Source of the DNA: Endomicrobiia bacterium
Lineage (GTDB): Bacteria > Elusimicrobiota > Endomicrobiia > DTEH01
NCBI GenBank assembly: GCA_025059805.1
Contig: JANXDG010000065.1
Location: forward strand, 3,234-67,233
DNA length: 64,000 nucleotides
Reading direction: 5' to 3'
Of the stretch, positions 4,436-46,865 are shown in pieces (the first letter of the stretch is position 1; each line of letters begins with the position of its first letter). The position numbers and the translations under genes are program-made. The notes under the pieces were generated by a model. That model was given only the letters and a program-made list of their open reading frames with translations. It was not told where the DNA came from and ran no database searches.

Positions 4436-5521
4436 TTATAAGATATCTATCACAACAACTTCAGATGAGGATAAAAACCTCATCGGTGGACCCCAAACCC
4501 CTGCACCTGAAGTAACATATAGTGTTGATTTATTTTTCTTAAATAGACCATATAGGTATTTATAAAAAATTCGTGTAAAAATATGAAATGGGAAAACCTG
4601 TCCATTATGGGTATGACCACTTAACATCATAATATCAAAATTACTGGAAAGTTCATCAAAAAATAATGGTTGGTGTGAAACAACAATATTAAGTTTTCCT
4701 GTTTTGTAGTTATTATTAATTATACTTACAATTTCTTCTTTGTGTAAGTCTTCTGTTCTGATATCGCCTAAGCCTATAATGTTAACATTTTCAATCTCAA
4801 CTGTACTGTTCTGTAAAACTATAAAACCAAGCTGTTTAAAAATTCCTTTTGCTTTCTCAAGGCCAAAATAATAATCATGATTACCTAATATTGCTATCTT
4901 TGTACAATATATCCTTTTAATTGCTTCTTCTAATTTAACATCATATACAAAACCAGGATCAAACATATCGCCACCAAAGATAAGTATGCCGGGACCTATA
5001 TTTTTTATTTTATTAAATAACTCTATTGCTATTTTATTCTTGTATTTGAAATCGAGATGTAAATCAGAAAGATAAACAATCCTGAAACTATTATTACCAT
5101 CTAAATCAATAGTAATATGTTTTATTTTTGGCATTTTTATTCCATGATAAGTTGCCAAAGTTGAAGATATTAAACTTACCAATAAAACTACTAAACCAAT
5201 ATATTTATTGTTTCTTCTGATGAATAAGAAAGAAATAAAATCACCAATTACACAATATGAAACAAAAATTACAACAACACCCATCCAATAAAAACCAAAG
5301 AAATAAATCGGTTTTAAAACTGTGTCCGACTTGATAATTGCCCTTAAAATTAAACTTAAAAATGAAACCGAAAATAGTAAAACAAATATAAACTTAACTA
5401 AATTTTTATAATTGTTTAATGTTAAATGCCTATCTAAAAAATTAACAATGTATAAATGTGACAAAAAATATCCCAAAATGAGCAAGAGGAATATTACAAG
5501 AATAATTACAACTTTTGCCAT
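4436..5521 (-). CDS. membrane-anchored calcineurin-like metallophosphoesterase
   Basis: About 4-5 N-terminal hydrophobic helices, then the motifs YLSDLHLD, GGDMFD, GNHDYY and SGHTHNGQ. Confidence 0.8.
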   Translation of the reverse strand: MAKVVIILVIFLLLILGYFLSHLYIVNFLDRHLTLNNYKNLVKFIFVLLFSVSFLSLILRAIIKSDTVLKPIYFFGFYWMGVVVIFVSYCVIGDFISFLFIRRNNKYIGLVVLLVSLISSTLATYHGIKMPKIKHITIDLDGNNSFRIVYLSDLHLDFKYKNKIAIELFNKIKNIGPGILIFGGDMFDPGFVYDVKLEEAIKRIYCTKIAILGNHDYYFGLEKAKGIFKQLGFIVLQNSTVEIENVNIIGLGDIRTEDLHKEEIVSIINNNYKTGKLNIVVSHQPLFFDELSSNFDIMMLSGHTHNGQVFPFHIFTRIFYKYLYGLFKKNKSTLYVTSGAGVWGPPMRFLSSSEVVVIDIL

Positions 5522-5533
5522 ATTTTATAATTT

Positions 5534-6514
5534 CTATTGTAATTTTATTCCATACCGTTCAAGATCTGATTTCAACATCATTCTAACAAGTTCTTCAAAC
5601 TTCACTTTTGGATACCAACCAAGTTTTTTTCGTGCTTTACTGTAATCACCACACAATTCAAAAACTTCAGCTGGACGATAATGTTGAGGATCTATAACTA
5701 CATAATCTTCCCAATTAAGTCCTACATAACTGAACGCCAATTCAGCAAATTCTTTAACTGAATGTGTTTCTCCTGTAGCAATTACATAGTCATCGGGCTC
5801 ATCCTGCTGAAGCATAAGCCACATAGCCTCCACATAATCACCTGCAAAACCCCAGTCACGTTTTGCTTCAAGATTACCTAATCTTAATTCTTTTGCCAAA
5901 CCTGCTTTTATTTTTGCTACAGTATCTGTAATTTTACGTGTCACAAATTCAAACCCACGTCTTGGTGATTCATGATTAAAAAGTATTCCGTTACAACAAA
6001 ACATATTGTAGGCTTCACGGTAGTTCATTGTCATATAAAAACCAGCAACTTTTGAAACACCATATGGCGATCTTGGATGGAACGGCGTATTCTCATTTTG
6101 TGGTGTCTCTTTTGCTAAACCAAACATCTCGGATGAACCTGCAAAATAAAATTTACATTTTGGTGCTTTTTCTTTTAAAGCTGATAACACAAACATTGTA
6201 CCGTTTATGTTAGCGTTTATTGTTGAAAACTCATCTTCAAATGAATAAGATACAAAACTTTGTGCAGCAAGATGGTAACATTCATCAGGTTGTACCTTCT
6301 CAACTATGCTGAATATACTTGCGTAACTTTCAAGTGAACCACAATGTAAAATAAGTTTATCCTTTATATGTTTTATTCTCCATAATCTATGTTCTGGATC
6401 TTCTAAAGCCACTCTTCTTACAATACCATGAACTTCATATCCTTTAGTTAGAAGAAACTCTGCAAGGTATGAACCATCTTGTCCAGTAATACCTGTAATT
6501 AATGCTTTTTTCAT
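5534..6514 (-). CDS. gmd: GDP-mannose 4,6-dehydratase
   Basis: MKKALITGITGQDGSYLAEFLLTKGYEVHGIVRR N-terminus, SSEMFG, YGVSK (Y-x3-K) and NHESPRRG. The signature is colinear with Gmd. Confidence 0.92.
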   Translation of the reverse strand: MKKALITGITGQDGSYLAEFLLTKGYEVHGIVRRVALEDPEHRLWRIKHIKDKLILHCGSLESYASIFSIVEKVQPDECYHLAAQSFVSYSFEDEFSTINANINGTMFVLSALKEKAPKCKFYFAGSSEMFGLAKETPQNENTPFHPRSPYGVSKVAGFYMTMNYREAYNMFCCNGILFNHESPRRGFEFVTRKITDTVAKIKAGLAKELRLGNLEAKRDWGFAGDYVEAMWLMLQQDEPDDYVIATGETHSVKEFAELAFSYVGLNWEDYVVIDPQHYRPAEVFELCGDYSKARKKLGWYPKVKFEELVRMMLKSDLERYGIKLQ

Positions 6515-7281
6515 TTTTTCCTCCTCATTTCCTTTAGTTCAATATATTTTAAATAACTAAAAATTACTGTTAACGCACTTGATAAACTTATAAAAAATCC
6601 ACGCCAGCCATCTATGTATCCTTTTAAAACAAAAAACTTTAGAATAAAAAAGTACAATGGTCTTATTATAAGTTCTTTGAAAGTATTAATGAAGTTTATT
6701 TTGATCCTTTTTTTCATATATTCATTTGCATACTGTGTTGTATATCTTTTAAACTTGTCAATCCAATCGTCTATCTTCTCATATGAGTAGTGTAAAAGTG
6801 GATTTCTCAAATAACCAACCTTATTTGTCAAGATTATCCCGTTAGTATGTATTTCATTCTGAAAATTTATTTTGCCCTTTTTAAATAACCTTGGAATATA
6901 TGAAGGATACCACCCACAGGTTTTTATCCAACGACCACTAAAAAATGTTTTTACAGGTACCATGTATACTTCTGATTCACTCCTCTGAATCACATCCTTT
7001 ATCTCTTCTTTTAGGTTATCATCCACAACTTCATCTGCTTCTATAAGAAGAATCCACTCATTTGATGTTTTTGAAATACCAAACTCCCTGTCTGGATTAC
7101 ATATTAGCTTTGGTTCAGTAATGTATATTTTCGTAGTATATTCTTTTACAATTTCTACTGTTTTATCTTCTGATGATTGATCAACAACTACAATCTCATC
7201 ACACCATTTTATACTTTCAAGACATCGTCTTATTTTCTTCTCTTCATTTCTAACAATCAAAACAGTAGATATTTTATTCAT
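6511..7281 (-). CDS. glycosyltransferase family 2
   Basis: STVLIVRNEEKKIRRCLESI, VVVDQSSEDKT and IEADE (DxD-like). Hydrophobic C-terminal tail. Confidence 0.75.
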   Translation of the reverse strand: MNKISTVLIVRNEEKKIRRCLESIKWCDEIVVVDQSSEDKTVEIVKEYTTKIYITEPKLICNPDREFGISKTSNEWILLIEADEVVDDNLKEEIKDVIQRSESEVYMVPVKTFFSGRWIKTCGWYPSYIPRLFKKGKINFQNEIHTNGIILTNKVGYLRNPLLHYSYEKIDDWIDKFKRYTTQYANEYMKKRIKINFINTFKELIIRPLYFFILKFFVLKGYIDGWRGFFISLSSALTVIFSYLKYIELKEMRRKK

Positions 7282-8312
7282 AAACTTCTATATAATTCTA
7301 TTATTTTAGTCACATAGTTCTTCACACAGAAAATTTCAGATTTTAATTTTGCATTTTTTGAAATTCTTAATCTCAGGTCATCATCATAAAGAACTAATTT
7401 TAACGCGTTGATTAAATCAAAAGGATTTGGTTCAACAAGAATTCCATCTACCATATGCTGGATAATTTCTCTTGGCCCTCCAAGATTTGTAGCTATAATT
7501 GTTTTTCCTAAAACCATACCTTCTATAATAGTTCTACCAAACGGTTCTGGCTCTACAGAAGGATTTACAATAACATCACAGATGTTCATATAGTCATAAA
7601 CATTTTCTATGTAACCACAGAATCTTACATTATCTTTTATACCTAACTCTAATGCTAACTTTTTGAGATTTTTTTCTTCTTTTCCTGTACCACAAATAAG
7701 AAGATAAATATTTTTATCTTGTAATTTAGAGAAAGCATTAAATAAAATCTCGTGTCCTTTCCATTTTTCTAAACGAGAGAATACCCCTATTACTTTTGCA
7801 CCTTCATTAATATCTAAATTTCTTTTCAACTTGTCACTATCAATATTAAATCGTATATTTTCAATATCCACAGGATTGTAGAGTTTCACAATTTTATTCT
7901 TTGTGTACTTAAACTTAGTCATAACTGCATCTGAAGTAACTATGATTTTGTTAACTAATAACGAAATTAATTTTTCTTTAAACGGTGAAGTTTCAACTAC
8001 TCTATTATGCCAGATAATTTTCTTACCAAATATTTTCCCTGCTAACGCACTGATAAAAGTGTATTTAGTACAAGCAGAATTGATATGTAGTAAGTCGGGA
8101 TTATAGTCTGATATGATAAATATAAGTTTTGGTATCGTTGCAACTACGACAGGAATTTTGTTTTTTTCAAGTATACTCTTAAAAATTCCATCACGACTTA
8201 AAACTACAAGAAACTTAAACTTTTCAACATCAAGATTTTTTAATAACGTCAACAAACTAACCTGACCTCCACCAGGTGGGTCTAACGGTTCATCAATGTA
8301 AAGAATTTTCAT
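7278..8312 (-). CDS. glycosyltransferase family 4
   Basis: NPSVEPEPFGRTIIEGMVLGKTIIATNLGGPREI (E-x7-E region), GT-B architecture. Confidence 0.8.
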   Translation of the reverse strand: MKILYIDEPLDPPGGGQVSLLTLLKNLDVEKFKFLVVLSRDGIFKSILEKNKIPVVVATIPKLIFIISDYNPDLLHINSACTKYTFISALAGKIFGKKIIWHNRVVETSPFKEKLISLLVNKIIVTSDAVMTKFKYTKNKIVKLYNPVDIENIRFNIDSDKLKRNLDINEGAKVIGVFSRLEKWKGHEILFNAFSKLQDKNIYLLICGTGKEEKNLKKLALELGIKDNVRFCGYIENVYDYMNICDVIVNPSVEPEPFGRTIIEGMVLGKTIIATNLGGPREIIQHMVDGILVEPNPFDLINALKLVLYDDDLRLRISKNAKLKSEIFCVKNYVTKIIELYRSL

Positions 8313-8313
8313 C

Positions 8314-9318
8314 CTATGTCCTATAGATTAGATACAAAAATATTCTAACTAATCGTCCTAAATCAAAAGCAACATCAGCTATGAGTTTTATAAAAGGAAA
8401 ACACAAAAATGTAAGCATCCGGTACGGTATAGAAAAATTGTAAATGTGAAAATACTTCCACATAAATTTGTGTTTCATTAACTGTGTGAAATACCATAAT
8501 ATTAGAAAAATAAATATTAATGGTTTAAAAAACAAACTTATTAAAAAAACTGTAAATAATTTTAAGATAAATGAAGTTTTTATTACATACTCAAAATGGA
8601 CAGATGAGACAAATACCAAATCTATATCTGCCATTCCACGGCGAATATACCATTTTACTACTTTAAACAAGTTTTTATGTGTATCATGCCATACAATAGC
8701 ATCGGGGATATATACAAACTTATTTTTGCCATACTTCTTCGTAATCCTTAAACAAATATCTGTATCTTCGCTACCAAATTTATTTGCCAAGTTAAACATT
8801 CCTACATCTAAAATTATGTCTTTTCTAAAAATAGTATTGCATGTAGCAACTTGTGACAACTCAATCATTTTGCCTCTTGAATAATTATGCAGTCTAAAAC
8901 CACCACCAGGATGACCTAATACACCTATTGAAAAACTTATAAAATTACTGTTCCCATTTTTTGGAAATACAGCACCCATAGCACCAAAATATTTATCTTT
9001 GTTTTTTTCAAACTCTTCAGTTAATGTTTTGAACCAATTTTCTGTAATTTCAATATCATCATCAATAAATATTATATAGTCAGTTAAAGAATTAACTACT
9101 CCTATGTTTCGCTGATGTGAGAATCCTTTTTCTTTTAATGGAACTTTAATATATTTTATTTTTTCCTGTTGTATTCCTAATGAACCTTCATCATCGGTTG
9201 CATCTACTATTATGACCTCAGCAGAATCAAAAACTTTATATTTTTTAAGGGTTTCTATACATCTTTTAACTTTCTTTTTGCCATTAGAGGTTATTATAAC
9301 TATTGAATATTTGCTCAT
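8314..9318 (-). CDS. glycosyltransferase family 2 with C-terminal membrane helices
   Basis: SIVIITSNGKKKVKRCIETL, IIVDATDDEG and FIDDDIE. I trimmed the start to ATG 9318 (MSKYSIV); the longer track ORF (to 9366) would overlap the upstream gene by 83 nt. Confidence 0.7.
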   Translation of the reverse strand: MSKYSIVIITSNGKKKVKRCIETLKKYKVFDSAEVIIVDATDDEGSLGIQQEKIKYIKVPLKEKGFSHQRNIGVVNSLTDYIIFIDDDIEITENWFKTLTEEFEKNKDKYFGAMGAVFPKNGNSNFISFSIGVLGHPGGGFRLHNYSRGKMIELSQVATCNTIFRKDIILDVGMFNLANKFGSEDTDICLRITKKYGKNKFVYIPDAIVWHDTHKNLFKVVKWYIRRGMADIDLVFVSSVHFEYVIKTSFILKLFTVFLISLFFKPLIFIFLILWYFTQLMKHKFMWKYFHIYNFSIPYRMLTFLCFPFIKLIADVAFDLGRLVRIFLYLIYRT

Positions 9319-31138: not shown

Positions 31139-31198
31139 TGTATAAACTCCTTTCATAAAACTTTTTATAGTATACCTCTTCCACTTCAGAAAACTAAC

Positions 31199-31231
31199 GC
31201 ATCAAAAAATTACTCACCTCCTTTCTGATGC
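31199..31231 (-). promoter_or_regulatory. hairpin displaying a 13-nt perfect Shine-Dalgarno-like sequence in its loop, within the OMP leader
   Basis: The minus strand reads GCATCA-gaaaggaggtgagtaatttttt-TGATGC. AGAAAGGAGGTGA (31214-31226) is an exact complement of the canonical 16S 3' tail. Only a 2-codon ORF (ATG CGT TAG) follows. Confidence 0.3.
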
Positions 31232-31592
31232 ACAAATTTTAGTCCTCCGAGTGTTTAATCTTGCCAGGTACAGTGTTTAAAAATGCAGTTTATAACAATA
31301 CAAATGATTTCTTTTAGTACAAGAATGGATAATTGTTATAATTTCAAACTATAAGGTTAAAATTATTGTAATACCAGATCGCTGACGAGATTTATTAAAA
31401 CATAATTTCAGGTATTCCTAATTTAAGACGAGATACAAAATCATAAAATTAAATCAATTTATCCTTAAATTAAGTTTACCTAAAATTAGATGTGACTTTA
31501 TTTTAATAAACCCTCGGCAGTATATATGAGAAATTAAAGAACAATTATGTTATTATAGTAATTTATTTTTGTTTATAATATCAAAAGTAAAT

Positions 31593-32168
31593 TTAAAAAG
31601 TCAAGTGTTTAAGAAAAATTTTAACTATAGGTTTATATTCGGGACCTTCAGGTTTAAGGATGCTTTGAAAAAATGTTATACTGTTGACCTTACTGCTGCC
31701 AAAATGTTGATTCTTATATTTTTCAACATAATTAACTATTTCGCTAAGACGCCTTACCTGTTTTATCCTTGCAATGGTAAGATGTGCAACAAACTCTTTC
31801 TGTTCTTTGGCAAAACCTTTATTTGAAAGTTCATTATCAATAAAGTTTGCAAGTTCGCTAATTTTTTGAGCACCATCTTTTATCCCCAACCATAGAACAC
31901 GAGGAAAGTCTATCTTAGGAAATACGCCTATGCCTTCAATAATAATTTTGAATTCTTTTATATTTTTTACTACACTGTCCAGAACGGATTTCACGACCTC
32001 AACTTGTTTTTCGTTAATCTCGCCTAAAAACTTTAGTGTGATATGCAAGTTTTCTTTTTTTACCCAGGAGATTTTGTTGCTATCTATCTCGCGATAGGTC
32101 TTAAAAATAAAATCGCCTATAGTATCTAAAATATTTTTCTCAAGCTCTACTGCTATAAATGTTCTCAT
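31593..32168 (-). CDS. thpR: RNA 2',3'-cyclic phosphodiesterase (2H family, ThpR/LigT)
   Basis: 191 aa with the two H-x-T/S-x motifs HITLKF and HLTIAR at the expected spacing. Confidence 0.85.
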   Translation of the reverse strand: MRTFIAVELEKNILDTIGDFIFKTYREIDSNKISWVKKENLHITLKFLGEINEKQVEVVKSVLDSVVKNIKEFKIIIEGIGVFPKIDFPRVLWLGIKDGAQKISELANFIDNELSNKGFAKEQKEFVAHLTIARIKQVRRLSEIVNYVEKYKNQHFGSSKVNSITFFQSILKPEGPEYKPIVKIFLKHLTF

Positions 32169-32172
32169 TTCA

Positions 32173-32374
32173 GTGGATGCGTAAATGTGATAATGTGTAT
32201 ATGCGTAGATGCGTGAATGTGTAGATGTGATTATGTTTTACTTTAACACTCCTTATCTCTACACACTAAAACGTTCACACATTAACGCATCTACACATCC
32301 TCGTATCCACACATCAACATATCCTCACATTTTCACATCCACGCATCTACGCATTCACACATACACGCATCATC
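32173..32374. repeat. inverted arrays of a degenerate 8-bp repeat (8 units GTRNATGY, 34-nt spacer, 13 units RCATNNAC)
   Basis: Read directly from the sequence. Phase is kept without indels in both arms. The structure fills the cinA-thpR intergenic gap. Confidence 0.9.
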
Positions 32375-33650
32375 ATTTCCTACCACCCAAACGTAGCCTT
32401 AGCATATCAAGCGCAGTGTTTACAGCTTGTTCTTTAACTTCTAGTCTTGTACCAAGAAATCTGAAACATTTTGTTTCAAACTCTTTACCATCAAAAATAC
32501 AAATCCAAACAGTACCTACAGGTTTTTCCTTACTACCACCTGCGGGTCCAGCTATGCCTGAAATTGAAATACAATAATCAGCACCTGTTAAATTTTTAAC
32601 TCCGAGGCACATCTCTTTCACTGTTTGTTCTGATACTGCACCGTAAGTATCTAAAGTTTCCTTTTTAACACCTAAAAGTTTTGCTTTAAGAGTATTAGAA
32701 TATGCGACCACACCACCTAAAAAATAAAATGAGCTTCCTGGGATATTAGTGATTCTGTTCGCTAAAAGTCCGCCTGTGCAAGATTCTGCAACTGCTAATG
32801 TTTTTCTCTGTTTGCCCAACATCATACCAACAACATATTCTATAACTTGTCTTCCTTCAGCAAAAATTGTATTTTCGTATCCTGAATTTTTGAAACAATC
32901 GTAAATCTCTTTCTTTATCAAAGTAAGTTCTTCATCAACTTTAAGTTCATCATCGCCTGAAACTGTTATGTGAATATCAACGATGTTTAAATGTGACAAT
33001 ATAGAAAACTCTACATCTGAAGTATATTTACTTTCAATATCAACTACTGGTTTTATTATTTCTTGCACTTTAGATTCAGGCACATTACATATATGTAAAA
33101 CAGCTTCTTTTGTAACTTTTATCTGGAACCTCTGAAGTTGTGGAAAAACATATTCGTCAAACATTGGCTGTAATTCTCGTGGTGGTCCTGGTAAGATAAA
33201 TATTATTTTTTGTGATTTATCTTTTTTTACAACGATTTTTTGTCCTGGTGCATGACCAATTTTGTTAGGTAAAACTTCAGCACCTTCTATTACATAAGCT
33301 TGACGTTCTGCAAAAGGTGGCATTTCTTGATTTTTGTTTATAAAATATCTCACGATATTTTCATACACTTCGCGAACAAAAACTTGTTTTTTATTTAAAA
33401 TTTTAGCAATTGTTTCTACGGTAACATCGTCTAAGGTTGGCCCGATACCGCCAGTAAGTAAAACAATATCTGAAGTTTCAAAGTGAAAATTGAACACTGT
33501 ATTAAGAACAGTTGGATCGTCAACTGTAATAGAACAGAAATCAACTTTTAAACCAAGTGTTGAAATTTTTTTTGTAATATAAAAAAGGTTGGTATTAGGT
33601 TTTTCTTTTAATAATTCTGTACCTGTTGTAATGACTGAAACTTTTACCAT
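32373..33650 (-). CDS. cinA: CinA family protein (MoCF-type domain + nicotinamide-nucleotide amidohydrolase PncC domain)
   Basis: VITTGTELL and LTGGIGPTLDDVT in the N-domain. AVAESCTGGLLA and ISGIAGPAGG in the C-domain. Confidence 0.88.
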   Translation of the reverse strand: MVKVSVITTGTELLKEKPNTNLFYITKKISTLGLKVDFCSITVDDPTVLNTVFNFHFETSDIVLLTGGIGPTLDDVTVETIAKILNKKQVFVREVYENIVRYFINKNQEMPPFAERQAYVIEGAEVLPNKIGHAPGQKIVVKKDKSQKIIFILPGPPRELQPMFDEYVFPQLQRFQIKVTKEAVLHICNVPESKVQEIIKPVVDIESKYTSDVEFSILSHLNIVDIHITVSGDDELKVDEELTLIKKEIYDCFKNSGYENTIFAEGRQVIEYVVGMMLGKQRKTLAVAESCTGGLLANRITNIPGSSFYFLGGVVAYSNTLKAKLLGVKKETLDTYGAVSEQTVKEMCLGVKNLTGADYCISISGIAGPAGGSKEKPVGTVWICIFDGKEFETKCFRFLGTRLEVKEQAVNTALDMLRLRLGGRK

Positions 33651-41963: not shown

Positions 41964-43271
41964 ATGAGAATGTATGATATAATTATAAAAAAACGTAACA
42001 ACCAACCGTTAACTAACGAAGAAATAAAATTTATCGTCTCAGGTTATGTCAACGGTATCATACCAGACTATCAAATGTCAGCATTACTTATGGCTATATA
42101 TTTTAACGGTATGACTGATGATGAACTTGCACAATTTACATTAAGCATGACACAATCAGGTAAAATTTTTGATCTCTCACACATTAGCAAACCTAAGGTT
42201 GACAAACATTCAACTGGTGGTGTAGGAGATGGTGTATCATTATCGTTAGCACCGTTAGTTGCAAGTTGCGATGTAGCAGTGCCTATGATTTCAGGCCGTG
42301 GCCTTGGACATACCGGAGGTACCTTAGATAAGCTAGAATCAATTCCAGGCTTTACTGTAAATCTTAGTGATAAAGAATTTTTTGAACAACTTGACAATAT
42401 TGGTGTAGTTATAGCAGGACAAACTGATGATTTAGTCCCTGCAGATAAAAAAATATATGCTTTACGAGATACAACTGCTACTGTTGATTCTATACCGTTA
42501 ATTGCGGCTTCTATAATGAGCAAGAAGCTTGCTGAAGGTACTGATGCATTATTGTTAGATGTGAAAACTGGCAACGGTGCGTTTATGGAGAACTATAACG
42601 ATGCTGTATCTCTTGCAAAAACTATGGTCAAAATAGGGAAAGACTGTGGTAAAAAAATGTTAGCACTTATAACTGATATGAACCAACCCCTTGGTGAATA
42701 TATTGGTAATGCACTTGAAGTTTATCAAGCAATAAAGATACTAAAAAATGAAGGACCTAAAGACATAACAGAACTTGTAATATACGAATCTGCAAAAATG
42801 TTAATCCTTGCTGGTGTTGAAAAAAATTTTGATACCGCAAAAAATAGAATAATATCAAACCTTACATCAGGTAAAGGTTTAGAAAAGTTTAAAAAATTAA
42901 TTGAAGTACAAAAAGGTAATCCTAAAATTGTTGATAATCCTGAACTCTTACCACAGGCTCAATATTGTGAACCGGTTACTTCAACAATTTCTGGTTTTGT
43001 TTCACATATTGACACCAAAGCAATAGGTTTCGCTTGCTGTATACTTGGTGCTGGCCGCGAGAAAATTACTGACAGAATTGACCATTCGGTAGGTTTGCGT
43101 ATAGTAAAAAAACTTGGTGATTATGTTCATACAGGTGAACCGATTGTCTACATATATTATAACGATAAGACTAAATTTGAAAAAGCAAAAAATTTAATTT
43201 TATCCTCCTTTAGCATAACTGAACAAAAATTAGGAAAACAAATTAATTTAGTATATGAAGAGATATCATAA
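41964..43271 (+). CDS. pdp: pyrimidine-nucleoside (thymidine) phosphorylase
   Basis: MRMYDIIIKKRNNQPLT N-terminus, HSTGGVGD and SGRGLGHTGGTLDKLE. Confidence 0.9.
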   Translation: MRMYDIIIKKRNNQPLTNEEIKFIVSGYVNGIIPDYQMSALLMAIYFNGMTDDELAQFTLSMTQSGKIFDLSHISKPKVDKHSTGGVGDGVSLSLAPLVASCDVAVPMISGRGLGHTGGTLDKLESIPGFTVNLSDKEFFEQLDNIGVVIAGQTDDLVPADKKIYALRDTTATVDSIPLIAASIMSKKLAEGTDALLLDVKTGNGAFMENYNDAVSLAKTMVKIGKDCGKKMLALITDMNQPLGEYIGNALEVYQAIKILKNEGPKDITELVIYESAKMLILAGVEKNFDTAKNRIISNLTSGKGLEKFKKLIEVQKGNPKIVDNPELLPQAQYCEPVTSTISGFVSHIDTKAIGFACCILGAGREKITDRIDHSVGLRIVKKLGDYVHTGEPIVYIYYNDKTKFEKAKNLILSSFSITEQKLGKQINLVYEEIS

Positions 43272-43277
43272 AATTCT

Positions 43278-45530
43278 ATGAGCCCGAAGATACCTTATAG
43301 ATGGAAATTGCGAGACAGCCCTTCTAATGTAGACATACAGCAGCTGGCACAAATATTTAAGTTCCCGACCACATTAATAAAAATACTTGTCAATCGCGGA
43401 TACGATACCGAAGAGAAAATAAAACGGTTTATAACTAACGACATAATTTACATTCAAAATCCATTTCTTTTCCCAGATATGGCAAATGCGGTAGAGATTA
43501 TCAAAAGACATATAGAGGGAAAAAACAACATCCTTATCTGGGGCGACAGAGATGTTGATGGTATTACATCGGTGTGCCTCTTGGTAAAAACTTTGAAAAT
43601 CTTAGGAGCTAATGTTGAATGGTATATACCACAAAGTGAAGGTTATGGTTTACATCTTGATGTTCTTAAGAAGTATATTGATAAGGTAAAACTAGTTATT
43701 ACGGTAGATTGTGGTATTACTGCTTATGAAGAAGTTAAATATCTAAAAGATAATGAAATTGATGTTGTTATTACAGACCATCACGAACCTGATATTCTTA
43801 CTAAAGATAAATTTGTTGAATTGAATGTTCCTGTAATTAACCCATATTTACCTGAATATACTGGATTTAAAGACCTTGCAGGTGTTGGTGTAGCATTTAA
43901 GCTTGTCACAGCACTTGTTATGTCGTATATCAAAAATTACTATAACAAAGATTTTGTAGTGTTAGACATTGAGACTACGGGACTTTCATGCTATGCTGAT
44001 GAAATCTGTGAAATTGCAGCTGTTAAAATTAGAAATTTTTTACCACAAGAAACTTTCCACACACTTGTTAAACCACACAATACAATACCTCAAGAAGTTG
44101 TCCGTATACATGGTATTACAAACGAGATGGTTAAAGATGCACCAACGATAGATAACATAATACCTCAGTTATTTGAATTTATAAAAGGAACAACACTGGT
44201 TGTTCACAATGCTGATTTTGACCTATCGTTTATCAATTTACAACTTAAAAAATTAGGATATCCAACGATAGATATATCTCAAGTAATTGATACTTTAAAA
44301 CTATCTCGTGAGTATTATCCTGTTGGTTCACATTCGCTTTCAGCACTTTCGGAAGATTTTATTTTTAAAAACCAACCGAGTCATCGTGCTATGGATGATG
44401 TTTTAGCAACAATTGAACTTTTTTATTATCTCTACTTTATATCTAACCCAAGATTAAGATTATTTATTGAAAACTGCCTACCGTATGTATGTTTAGGTAC
44501 AATTTCTGACCTTGTACCATTAATAGAGGATAATAGAATTATTGTCAAAAAAGGTATAGAAAATATGGTTTCTTCTAAAGAAGTGTGTTTTAAGATCATT
44601 ATTGATTATTTAAAACAAATGATAAATTCTTCAAACTTTACAAGCGAAGATATATCATGGTATATTATTCCTTTGCTTAACTCTGCTGGAAGAATGCAGG
44701 AAGTTTCGTTAGCAATAAACTTTTTGCTTGCTGAAGATAAAACTGAAGCTGAGGATTACTTTAGAAAACTTATTGAAATTAATAACAGAAGAAAAGCATT
44801 ACAAAATACTAATCTTTCAGTATTTTACAGTCTTGTTGAACAACAATGTAATTTGAAAGAAGATATCATTTTATTAGTTGTTGCTGAAAATGTTGAACAT
44901 GGTGTAACTGGTGTCATAGCAAACAATATGTTGCGCGAGTTTAACCGTCCTGTTATTCTTTTAATAACTGACAATGGTACTGCTACTGGTACCGCAAGAT
45001 CACCTAAAGGAACAAATATTTATGAATTATTAAAAAAGTGTGAACATTTATTTGAGAAATTTGGAGGGCATGAAAACGCCTGCGGACTTACGATAAATAA
45101 GGATAAAATTCCGGAATTTAGAAAACAACTTAAGGTTGTGGAAAAAGAACTAGTTATAACACCTCCTGTTCTTGAAATTGATACAGAGATAATTCCGGAA
45201 GAAATTAATTTTGAACTTTACAGATCTTTTGATTTATTAGAACCATGTGGTTATGAAAACCCATATCCAATTTTTTTGATTAAAAACCTTAAGATTGTAG
45301 ACTGGAAATATATAGGTAGGGAAAATTCAGCTGCCACAATTACTTTTGCGCCTTTAAGAAACGAACAAAAAACTGTTATTAATTCTATCTGTTGGGATAT
45401 GGATCAAGCTGATTTAACTAATATCTTGAAAAACTTTATGGTTTTTAATATTGTTGGTGAGATTGAACTGGATCCACAAAAAAAGAATGAACTAAGAGTT
45501 GTTCTACTTGACTTACAACCGGTTACTTAA
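43278..45530 (+). CDS. recJ: single-stranded-DNA-specific exonuclease RecJ with an inserted DnaQ-like DEDDh exonuclease domain
   Basis: DHH motifs GDRDVDGITS, VDCG, ITDHHEP and LAGVGVAFKL...LGTISDLVPL. DHHA1 motif GGHENACG. An insert at aa ~225-388 carries Exo I-III motifs. Confidence 0.85.
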   Translation: MSPKIPYRWKLRDSPSNVDIQQLAQIFKFPTTLIKILVNRGYDTEEKIKRFITNDIIYIQNPFLFPDMANAVEIIKRHIEGKNNILIWGDRDVDGITSVCLLVKTLKILGANVEWYIPQSEGYGLHLDVLKKYIDKVKLVITVDCGITAYEEVKYLKDNEIDVVITDHHEPDILTKDKFVELNVPVINPYLPEYTGFKDLAGVGVAFKLVTALVMSYIKNYYNKDFVVLDIETTGLSCYADEICEIAAVKIRNFLPQETFHTLVKPHNTIPQEVVRIHGITNEMVKDAPTIDNIIPQLFEFIKGTTLVVHNADFDLSFINLQLKKLGYPTIDISQVIDTLKLSREYYPVGSHSLSALSEDFIFKNQPSHRAMDDVLATIELFYYLYFISNPRLRLFIENCLPYVCLGTISDLVPLIEDNRIIVKKGIENMVSSKEVCFKIIIDYLKQMINSSNFTSEDISWYIIPLLNSAGRMQEVSLAINFLLAEDKTEAEDYFRKLIEINNRRKALQNTNLSVFYSLVEQQCNLKEDIILLVVAENVEHGVTGVIANNMLREFNRPVILLITDNGTATGTARSPKGTNIYELLKKCEHLFEKFGGHENACGLTINKDKIPEFRKQLKVVEKELVITPPVLEIDTEIIPEEINFELYRSFDLLEPCGYENPYPIFLIKNLKIVDWKYIGRENSAATITFAPLRNEQKTVINSICWDMDQADLTNILKNFMVFNIVGEIELDPQKKNELRVVLLDLQPVT
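43950..44441 (+). other. DEDDh (DnaQ/epsilon-like) 3'-5' exonuclease domain inserted in the RecJ DHH domain
   Basis: ExoI FVVLDIETTGLS, ExoII VVHNADFDLSFI and ExoIII SHRAMDDVLAT (H-x4-D). Confidence 0.75.
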
Positions 45531-45566
45531 TAAGGGAAAATATTATTAAAATAAAGGAAAGTAAAA

Positions 45567-46865
45567 ATGAATAAAACATACAAAGATTTCATAAATAAGC
45601 AATTAGAAACAAATACTGGATTACAACAAATTTATAATTTATTACCTAAACTTAAAGGTAAAAAGATTGTTACATTTTGCCACGATGATCCTGACGGCGT
45701 AACTTCAGGAATCATTTTTAAACGTTTAACAGATAAACTAGAAATTAATAATCATCTATTTTTCCCATACACCTTTCAATTATCACGAGAAGAAGTTGAG
45801 AACATCAAGGATATATATACGCCAAAAGCATTGTTTATCATTGATAAAGGTACTATCGAAACTTACAATAGTTTTATAGATCTAATTGAACATGTTGTTG
45901 TAATAGATCATCATCCTAAGATAGGAAATCAATTTGATAAAATTATAGTTTACAACCCTGCGATACCAAAGTATGTCCGTACTTCAGGTAGTTTTTTAGT
46001 ACACATACTTGCAAGTTTGTTTGATGCAACAACTCCATATGACGATTTTATTTGTCTTGTTGGAATGAAATGTGACTGGGCGGTAGACCCATTATATGAT
46101 GATATACCTGAATTTTCACAAATTTTTTTTAATGAACGAGTAAGAGAACAATATAATTGGCTTTTGCAGAAAAGGATAAACTTAAGACCAACAATGTTTG
46201 ATATAAAGAATCCTAATCAAACATGTCTGCTTAACCAAATTTCTGAACTTTTCTTTGGGGTTACCGGTGGCGGTTTCCAATACTTTTATAATTCTTACGA
46301 TGAAAGACTGAAATACATTGACCAGCCAAAATTATGTTTTGAAACTTTTATTCAAGAATTTCCACTACCAAAAATTAATACAGTAGATGAATTTATTGAT
46401 CTGTTAAATAATAAGGAAGTTGTACATATTATCTATAAATATTTTTTAAATGACTGGGATAAAACTGAAAATTTATTTGATACTAACACAATGTTAGTGA
46501 AGTATTACAAAGGTATAAAAATATTCTTTTTCTTTGGCAAAGACGTAAAACTTATGCCTATGGTAGGTTCAAAAAAATTATATCAGCTATCTGACAATTC
46601 GGAATCTGTAATTATTATGTTTAACTCAGAACCTAACAACAGTATACATGTATCTCTTCGTGGTAATACTAATAAGATTCACCTCGGACATCTAGCATCA
46701 TCGCTTGCTGAACAGTTAAATTCACAATTAAATGACAAAACAAAAATTTCAGGTGGTGGTCATCCGTTCGCTGCAGAATGCAAAATTAAAGATGCTGCAG
46801 CGGATTTAATGTCAGTATTAAAATATACAATCCATTTTTTAGAACAACAGTTAAATACAGAATAA
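45567..46865 (+). CDS. DHH/DHHA1 family phosphoesterase (NrnA/RecJ-like)
   Basis: FCHDDPDGVTSG, VVIDHHP and GGGHPFAAE. Confidence 0.75.
   Translation: MNKTYKDFINKQLETNTGLQQIYNLLPKLKGKKIVTFCHDDPDGVTSGIIFKRLTDKLEINNHLFFPYTFQLSREEVENIKDIYTPKALFIIDKGTIETYNSFIDLIEHVVVIDHHPKIGNQFDKIIVYNPAIPKYVRTSGSFLVHILASLFDATTPYDDFICLVGMKCDWAVDPLYDDIPEFSQIFFNERVREQYNWLLQKRINLRPTMFDIKNPNQTCLLNQISELFFGVTGGGFQYFYNSYDERLKYIDQPKLCFETFIQEFPLPKINTVDEFIDLLNNKEVVHIIYKYFLNDWDKTENLFDTNTMLVKYYKGIKIFFFFGKDVKLMPMVGSKKLYQLSDNSESVIIMFNSEPNNSIHVSLRGNTNKIHLGHLASSLAEQLNSQLNDKTKISGGGHPFAAECKIKDAAADLMSVLKYTIHFLEQQLNTE

Follow-up and report, generated by a model that had tools for sequence, protein, structure and literature searches.

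Convergent arrays of a degenerate octamer at the cinA-thpR junction of an uncultured Endomicrobia bacterium: a candidate foldback insertion between co-directional genes

The octamer block between cinA and thpR

The element considered here is a block of degenerate 8-nt repeats that lies between cinA and thpR, two genes on the minus strand of a 64-kb stretch of DNA (hereafter, the window) from an uncultured member of the Endomicrobia, phylum Elusimicrobiota. On the plus strand, the thpR-side arm (32173-32236) consists of eight head-to-tail octamers of the type GTRNATGY and the cinA-side arm (32271-32374) of 13 head-to-tail octamers of the reverse-complement type, RCATNNAC, in both cases with no indels. 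Together with a 34-nt spacer, these arms occupy the 204-nt gap between the cinA stop codon (32373-32375) and the thpR start codon (32166-32168), and all of these counts and coordinates agree with the original prediction, which had been made from the letters of the window. The outer ends of the block read TGATGCGT... and ...ACGCATCCACT, and terminal inverted repeats are present. Since the element is a foldback, the order in which a G/U-rich arm comes first and a C/A-rich arm second is identical on both strands. The features, in the direction of transcription and with the two genes last, are as follows.

32373..32379, minus strand: left GAAATGA copy of a 7-bp direct repeat, a candidate target-site duplication, which holds the cinA stop TGA (32373-32375)
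32172..32372, no strand assigned: the whole inserted foldback block, 201 bp
32271..32374, minus strand: cinA-proximal arm, with 13 in-phase GTRNATGY octamers on the transcribed strand, G/U-rich, containing 12 ATG, 8 GTG and 9 stop triplets
32237..32270, minus strand: non-repeat centre of 34 nt, a loop with AAGGAG (32249-32254)
32235-32240 with 32267-32272: inner 6-bp stem GTTTTA/TAAAAC closing the centre loop
32173..32236, minus strand: thpR-proximal arm, with eight in-phase RCATNNAC octamers on the transcribed strand, C/A-rich, lacking ATG, GTG and TTG triplets and with 3 G among its 64 nt
32165..32171, minus strand: right GAAATGA copy of the 7-bp direct repeat, which holds the thpR start ATG (32166-32168)
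32373..33650, minus strand: cinA, the upstream gene, 425 aa, with Pfam domains MoCF_biosynth and CinA
31593..32168, minus strand: the downstream gene, a thpR/ligT-type 2'-5' RNA ligase / cyclic phosphodiesterase gene, 191 aa, with Pfam domains LigT_PEase and 2_5_RNA_ligase2

Tandem Repeats Finder returned a period of 8 in each arm. The self-match at a lag of 8 nt is 0.68 and 0.66 in the two arms, compared with a window-wide mean of 0.29 (standard deviation 0.07), and the arms are the top two lag-8 peaks of the entire 64 kb. The comparison of this autocorrelation with shuffles, which had been proposed as a check on the repeat, gives z = 10.8 when the block region itself is shuffled, and a two-unit pattern has 18 matches in the window, 17 of them in the block, where 4.2 were expected. 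The unit is therefore 8 nt long, not 7 nt as in the described short-unit families, and the related loci discussed below give no signal at lags of 7 and 9. Runs of alternating purines and pyrimidines, to which the original prediction ascribed a potential for Z-DNA, are also present in the block.

The 204-nt spacer is conspicuous in this genome because spacers between same-strand genes in the window have a median of only 4 nt. Among relatives, the order of the neighbouring genes (OTCase, DUF3467, cinA, thpR) is unchanged with or without an array, and the N-terminus of ThpR (MRTFIA) is kept. An exact-protein look-up returned no record for ThpR and succeeded for CinA. It had been considered notable that thpR lacks a Shine-Dalgarno motif; however, only 11 of the 56 window genes (open reading frames of at least 150 aa) have such a motif upstream, so that its lack before thpR is normal for the genome, in which translation initiation seems to proceed mostly without Shine-Dalgarno pairing and to depend on tight gene packing. 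Scanning 31400-33000 for terminators revealed no terminator-like site and no T-run after the 3' arm, and promoter-like sites around the block occur at chance level. A search of Rfam at a permissive E-value yielded only sub-threshold matches to microRNA models (25 bits against a gathering score of 85). A replication origin, terminus or fork trap was ruled out, as GC skew is single-signed across the region and does not switch at the element.

Contigs and loci used for comparison are labelled with L-numbers (e.g., L079, L199, L219). A second assembly of the same species (JAOAEX010000042.1 of GCA_026416555.1; L219) is 99.42% identical to the window over 3098 nt and holds the same block with equal unit numbers and four substitutions. 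Inverted repeats are typical of snap-back chimeras, and an assembly or amplification artefact of this kind might be suspected here. However, the block is present in this independent assembly and is therefore no assembly artefact, the four point differences, the arms that are not mirror copies of one another and the two intact flanking genes point the same way, and we regard the chance of an artefact as negligible.

Gene junctions with and without the block

In two relatives (L003, L004), the cinA stop and thpR start overlap as ATGA, and in two others (L002, L005) the genes are separated by 5-13 nt. On either side of the block in the window stands an exact direct repeat of 7 bp (GAAATGA as read on the gene strand), and the bases beyond the two copies differ; at this base composition, the chance of a 7-mer match at two fixed positions is ~2e-4. 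Removing the block together with one GAAATGA copy in silico leaves ...GGTAGGAAATGAGAACATTT, with an ATGA overlap as in L003 and L004. As judged by comparison of sequences, this shows the block to be a lineage-specific insertion at a former cinA/thpR ATGA overlap, accompanied by a 7-bp flanking duplication. Because GAAATGA was duplicated, cinA retained its stop codon and thpR its start codon.

Other relatives have long cinA-thpR spacers of different kinds. The spacer in L001/L369 is ~130 nt long and contains no arrays, whereas L220 and L221 have a G/T-type octamer array that reaches into the end of cinA and differs by one unit between the two. L370 has a heptamer array and, immediately ahead of the thpR ATG, two and a half octamers of the C/A type. 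The arrays at this junction in L220, L221 and L370 are regarded as remnants of the family. Thus, the junction was either hit repeatedly, or it holds an old insertion that changes fast. The L370 spacer (2778-2927) reads as heptamers AGTAGCG AGTAGTG AGTAGTC AGTAGCG plus the C/A-type octamers GCATTTAC and ACATTAAC, so that 7-nt and 8-nt arrays coexist at one junction.

A scan of public contigs, viral and metagenomic, with patterns based on the unit found foldbacks of similar build outside this junction. Six of the eight positions of the unit were fixed in these patterns, over four or more units, and therefore a motif shared across phyla is partly imposed by the search. The metagenome scan returned at least 120 loci, counts that are not frequencies. 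Most octamer matches were unrelated perfect microsatellites (GTAAATGT, ACATACAC and others in viral contigs), and only L035, L079, L094 and L084 were informative among the first matches in viral contigs. A consistent minority consists of a degenerate G/T-type array, a short centre and a degenerate C/A-type array, which together fill the spacer of co-directional genes. Contigs of unrelated bacteria with such foldbacks (L109/L121, L129, L204, L094, L186 and L143) range from 30 to 65% G+C. As a control, the pattern RACTNNCA x4, equal in composition, matched 27 arrays in viral contigs, none of them both heterogeneous and paired, compared with 3-4 of 50 for the real pattern, a small sample; RTACNNAC x4 was a poor control because period-4 repeats match it. 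A BLAST search of the block against 50,697 phage records gave no matches, and a tblastx comparison of AT-rich family loci with Endomicrobia loci found no shared genes and was uninformative for taxonomy.

Within the Endomicrobia, in which L199 was placed by protein search, an element of this type lies between a deacetylase gene (hdac) and pgi. Comparing L199 with L365 (PGI 97% identical), the ~75-nt centre and the flanks are conserved, while the 5' arm has 9 units in L199 and 11 in L365, and the units of the 3' arm are reshuffled. The comparison shows that the arrays gain and lose 8-nt units as wholes. As the first octamer units in L199 and L365 encode the end of the upstream deacetylase and its stop codon, unit changes alter its C-terminus (WMSG* vs. 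WMSE*). The conserved centre (L199 12416-12666, L365 373-634) also has heptamers of its own, AACTATT AACTATC AACTATT AACTATT, and a small hairpin, CCGCAGATTGCGG. Octamer arrays are absent before pgi in L366, where the spacer is 15 nt, and in L367, where an unrelated spacer of 222 nt is found. L366 has a small copy elsewhere, directly after the stop codon of a DUF763 gene, with the same units as in the window (GTGAATGT, GTGGATAC, GTATATGC). In other Endomicrobia DNA (~130 kb), copies are single.

A separate observation concerns L366, in which ~3.3 kb (5198-8525) are inserted between the DUF763 and deacetylase genes relative to the syntenic L367. This insert contains only small open reading frames without Pfam matches, some of them secreted- or TPR-like, and the octamer foldback (5210-5310) lies exactly at its left edge.

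Two G+C-rich phage contigs, L079 and L035, have several homologous copies each. The three copies in L079 lie within 4.9 kb, between tail genes that include a lambda-J-like gene, and L035 has two in 10 kb with a common core; the phage copies share arm or core sequence. One copy in L079 (E3) is a 130-nt foldback, compared with a 13-nt spacer at the same junction of the related phage L372 (83% protein identity), and in its flanks, CATGAGAAGCA and CATGAAAACAA, the start-codon region of L372, CATGAAAACCA, is present twice. The left copy keeps the old ribosome-binding site, and a new one is present at the 3' end of the element; the idea that phage elements merely abut an ancestral ribosome-binding site was revised, since E3 supplies a new site. 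The next junction in L372 has a different foldback with other units. This tail-gene junction (L372 3115-3275), at which L079 has an octamer foldback, contains CACAGAGRG and its complement as well as ACACGGATTC / ACACGGATGA / ACACGGATTG.

Filled and empty sites can therefore be compared in three cases: the window with L002-L005, E3 of L079 with L372, and L199 with L366. The elements precede unrelated genes (pgi, Sua5-like, purH-like and phage tail genes), and the flanking genes are co-directional. Among isolated array pairs on prokaryote-like contigs, ~10 of 10 independent pairs are convergent and none is divergent (two-sided binomial P = 0.002), as expected for the ends of one element type.

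The main rival to a mobile origin is local expansion of simple sequence, in which the junction octamer was duplicated by slippage and the opposed arm arose by a template switch, with neither mobility nor function. The junction octamer GGAAATGA agrees with the unit at G1, A5, T6 and G7, the left copy of the start region at E3 grades into the first array units, whole units vary between relatives, and in L220, L221 and L199 the array extends into the 3' end of the gene upstream. Further, length variation is known for repeats with long units (PMC4692102). However, units of one family, in one polarity, are met again at unrelated junctions and in unrelated genomes, where independent births should yield both polarities and different units, and the phage copies have common arm or core sequence. 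In addition, the left junction copy is shifted by 2 nt against the phase of the array, and neutral decay should be even over the eight positions of the unit, which is strongly uneven (p = 3e-5, see below). On balance, we consider a local slippage origin rather unlikely.

Folding of the arms and constraint within the unit

The two arms can pair in several registers, as the original prediction had stated. Its hand count of 39-47 complementary positions of 64 is now 39-49, with 47, 41, 44, 44, 49 and 39 in the in-phase registers, and its best local block of 21 of 24 positions is exact. An inverted-repeat search gives 64-nt arms with 77% complementarity, which, together with the lack of a terminator-like site, bears out the description of a slippery, imperfect foldback rather than a terminator. 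The fold of the transcribed (minus) strand as RNA, another check proposed at the outset, has a predicted energy of -78.7 kcal/mol (z = -5.9), and the block folded as DNA gives z = -5.5. The base of the predicted stem lies between the cinA stop and a point 8 nt before the thpR AUG, which is predicted to be open.

The order of units was permuted within arms, which preserves composition and periodicity. The best complementarity is 49 of 64 observed against 48.2 +/- 1.7 (P = 0.40), and the fold energy -78.7 observed against -80.6 +/- 4.4. Thus, the arms pair because they are two opposed arrays of one degenerate unit, with no unit-by-unit correspondence, and the hairpin, as modelled, is a generic rather than a tuned structure. 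The four differences between the window and L219 are all G/A, and all fall within the arm of 13 units. With two of them, A-C mismatches take the place of predicted G-C pairs, and the predicted fold moves to another register. Substitutions are denser in the block (4 of 201 nt) than in its flanks (14 of 2897 nt; P = 0.03), which fits weak or no constraint at most positions.

One function that was suggested for the block is a dedicated cinA-thpR mRNA structure that gates thpR translation or processing; it might, for instance, act as a thermometer, be a site for RNase III or be targeted by ThpR itself. Such a role could draw on the strong predicted hairpin (z = -5.9), on the position of the stem base with the AUG open, and on the fact that most genes here start without a Shine-Dalgarno motif, so that structure near the start should matter; effects on transcript stability or coupling have been proposed for the STRR hairpins of cyanobacteria (PMC2670836). 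However, the block is missing from most relatives with the same gene pair and has no Rfam match, unit-permuted arms fold equally well, and of the four differences between the strains, two disrupt G-C pairs and are not compensated. The same type of element also precedes pgi, Sua5-like, purH-like and phage tail genes. These results make a dedicated RNA switch quite improbable.

It had also been suggested that the block is a slippage-prone contingency element, i.e., that slippage in unit number switches expression of cinA or thpR by phase variation. The first half of this proposal has support at sister loci, as whole units differ between L199 and L365 (9 vs. 11) and between L220 and L221, and arrays can change the C-terminus of the upstream protein. 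The switching half has no direct support: unit numbers are equal in the window and L219, two strains at 0.58% divergence. Moreover, degeneracy of the units suppresses slippage, the arrays lie outside reading frames except for the cinA stop, and it is not obvious how a change of 8 nt in a hairpin that is not translated would act as an on/off switch. A contingency locus is accordingly a very remote prospect.

The positions of the unit are not equally variable. Deviations from the consensus at positions 1-8 among the 21 units of the block number 0, 6, 12, 10, 0, 1, 2 and 8 (chi-square p = 3e-5), so that G1, A5, T6 and G7 are near-invariant and positions 3, 4 and 8 are free. The same positional pattern is found at the independent loci L199, L365, L366, L129 and L204. 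Such a pattern is not expected from neutral decay of a tandem array nor from a pairing requirement alone.

Constraint of this form could reflect a binding array for a protein of the ribbon-helix-helix type (MetJ, ParG, omega), serving as operator, centromere-like site or roadblock. The metboxes of MetJ have an 8-bp period. The same period is found in parH, a ~100-bp array of degenerate ParG boxes, each a tetramer plus spacer (PMC3130281). The block likewise has an 8-bp period, a conserved core of four to five near-invariant positions per unit with the others free, arrays of about 100 bp, and blocks in direct and inverted orientation. In Geobacter metallireducens, multicopy paired sites with four octanucleotides in tandem (GTTGCTYN; TWGTTGAY), the partners lying on opposite strands, were proposed as regulator sites (PMC2700814). 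By description, the block resembles these as octanucleotide runs paired on opposite strands, although those in Geobacter have 2-4 units per side at variable distance. In contrast to the ribbon-helix-helix motifs, AGACGTCT or ACTC, the motif of the block is G...ATG, and whereas such arrays are situated at promoters or beside partition genes, the block lies inside an operon-like string of genes, has no linked candidate gene for a binding protein (its neighbours are OTCase, DUF3467, cinA and thpR) and is not conserved at orthologous junctions. Unrelated phyla and the tail operons of phages also show this architecture, and unit numbers drift. We therefore judge a protein-binding array to be unlikely.

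DnaA boxes (TGTGGAT), Pumilio-like UGUR motifs, type IIS sites (GGATG/GCATC) and anti-Shine-Dalgarno mimicry were considered and set aside for want of fit.

Known repeat systems and the origin of the block

Foldback transposons and MITEs (miniature inverted-repeat transposable elements), such as Drosophila FB, have inverted ends of short tandem or subterminal repeats, and described examples are eukaryotic. The block shares with them inverted arms of tandem units, variable arm length and little unique centre, as well as a flanking direct duplication, a fixed polarity of the ends and several copies in some genomes. It is unlike them in its seemingly low copy number and in the inconstant length of the duplication, 7 bp in the window and ~5-11 bp at E3 of L079, and it is not known to have a transposase.

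REP-type repeats have a defined consensus of 20-150 nt, the REPs themselves being present in hundreds of copies and associated with RAYT transposases. Repeats of the REP/BIME, Correia, ERIC and BOX families are transcribed, lie between co-transcribed genes and are able to stabilise or process mRNA. These families are bacterial intergenic palindromic repeats (PMC3733652), and the block resembles REP/BIME as a small non-coding inverted repeat between co-transcribed genes. However, it is not of the REP/BIME kind, which consists of imperfect palindromes of 20-40 nt that have a conserved tetranucleotide head and occur in high copy number, whereas the block is a 201-bp element of 8-nt units with one copy in the window.

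The closest likeness is to arrays of shorter units, which makes the original statement that no described repeat family matches too strong, since the heptamers of Xanthomonas (PMC4692102) and the STRR hairpins (PMC2670836) share the layout. The GGGAATC heptamer arrays of Xanthomonas are degenerate, mostly intergenic and situated between co-oriented genes near the upstream stop (Rehm et al. 2015, PMC4692102); they form 70-75 convergent, stem-loop-capable array pairs per genome and are transcribed, and close relatives differ in the length and sequence of the arrays but keep the type of pair (PMC4692102). Reports of repeats with units of 6-9 nt are rare according to the same authors, and the GGGGAYT heptamer arrays of Nostoc are comparable (PMC4692102). 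The block likewise has degenerate short-unit arrays that are convergent, lie between co-oriented genes and vary in length among relatives. In contrast, its unit is of 8 nt with a G...ATG core and no G-runs, whereas that of Xanthomonas is of 7 nt, G-rich and quadruplex-forming, and one copy is seen in the 64 kb covered here, against hundreds per genome there. Further, neither a flanking duplication nor filling of a junction has been reported for the Xanthomonas heptamers, whereas both are found here. The STRR heptamers of cyanobacteria form hairpins between co-transcribed genes, e.g., hupS-hupL, for which roles in transcript stability or translational coupling were proposed and are unproven (PMC2670836). 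By description, the block is similar in having short tandem units and an intergenic hairpin within an operon, although STRR units are heptamers of other sequence, restricted to filamentous cyanobacteria.

The block is thus an eight-base variant of known short-unit intergenic hairpins. In the literature that could be searched, no precedent was seen for the unit of 8 nt, for the phylum, for an insertion that fills the junction and duplicates the stop and start codons, or for the copies in phages. Hairpins of short units between co-transcribed genes have been known for decades in cyanobacteria and Xanthomonas, with their origin and function unexplained; what the present case adds is a version with 8-nt units, found in phages and in another phylum, an uncultured one, together with clean comparisons of filled and empty sites, a flanking duplication that preserves stop and start, strict convergent polarity and position-specific conservation of the unit. 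The question of what such repeats are becomes a choice between testable alternatives, namely a mobile junction-seeking element, a protein-binding array or slippage.

Taken together, the explanation that we favour, at about an even chance, is that the block is a dispersed, fast-evolving repeat of the STRR-like or foldback kind, made of convergent degenerate octamers of the form G-T-N-R-A-T-G-Y around a short centre, which settles at gene junctions and is passive rather than dedicated to thpR. A selfish or neutral foldback would reach gene junctions by transposition or by copying guided by microhomology, and its survival there would follow from the duplication, by which stop and start codon are both restored. 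The block would then be carried passively in the cinA-thpR transcript, where the G/U-rich 5' arm and the C/A-rich 3' arm may zip in many registers, and the long imperfect hairpin would bring the cinA stop and the thpR start together at the base of the stem. Convergent polarity would place spurious AUG and GUG codons and stops beside the upstream stop, and a start-free, G-poor stretch before the downstream start, in either orientation of the element. We propose that this asymmetry, which holds in both orientations, makes the element tolerable in a tightly packed operon. Any RNase III-type processing, protection of mRNA 3' ends or weaker translational coupling might be a by-product of a generic hairpin.

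Several points weigh against this explanation. The long spacers in L001/L369, L220, L221 and L370 could mean that the insertion is old rather than recent, and the resemblance of the junction octamer GGAAATGA to the array unit makes a local origin by duplication of the junction possible. The flanking duplication is clean only in the window and imperfect at E3 of L079 (5-11 bp); in L204 only ATGA is shared at the flanks, and L199 and L366 have no recognisable flanking duplication. The 64-kb window holds a single copy of the family, and no transposase or other mobilising gene was recognised in passing among its open reading frames, although no search was aimed at such genes. The near-invariance of G1, A5, T6 and G7, which exceeds what a purely structural role would ask for, points to possible recognition of a specific sequence. 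Finally, the putative link between the window and other phyla is based on architecture and on a unit motif that the search partly imposed.

In a bolder form, for which we see only a modest chance that all of its parts hold jointly, octamer foldbacks would constitute a previously unrecognised selfish class of prokaryotes and phages that is specialised for gene junctions. Such elements would land on stop/start overlaps and duplicate both codons, so that both genes survive; their inverted ends would be arrays of an 8-bp G...ATG site for a putative recombinase or binding protein; the phage copies would carry their own ribosome-binding site; and the elements would fold away in mRNA, leaving termination and re-initiation side by side. 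The codon-preserving insertion at junctions, the strict polarity and the phage copies are most worth pursuing. For annotation, the case is a warning that a strongly folding spacer before a gene need not regulate that gene.

Several further repeats and features were noticed during the comparison. In the window, the spacer downstream of thpR (31157-31592) is, at 436 nt, the widest same-strand gap; a tandem repeat of 16 nt lies at 31449-31486, and positions 31604-31575 on the minus strand make a good promoter-like site. At 41964-46865, three plus-strand genes interrupt a near-uniform string of minus-strand genes, with a local change in the sign of GC skew at 42-48 kb. In L068 (4790-5080), opposed groups of GCGTGGAA octamers and of the complement, TTCCACGC, surround the region upstream of a small gene whose product resembles, at its N-terminus, a helix-turn-helix DNA-binding protein; this array looks like an operator or iteron type, unlike the junction foldbacks. 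On the 2.2-kb metagenome contig L186 (408-544 and 1143-1475), near-perfect long octamer arrays (GTTGATRC; ~35 CCYTTCAA) stand beside a purH-like gene, and a 21-nt motif, GCGCTGGCGCGCGTTGAATTG..., is repeated between them. A tract of ~790 bp in L136 (4278-5067) has a strong 7-nt periodicity, and the contig also has three octamer arrays of the GTGAATGC/GTAGATGC type, each beside a conserved 'ttttcacgtttcac' motif.

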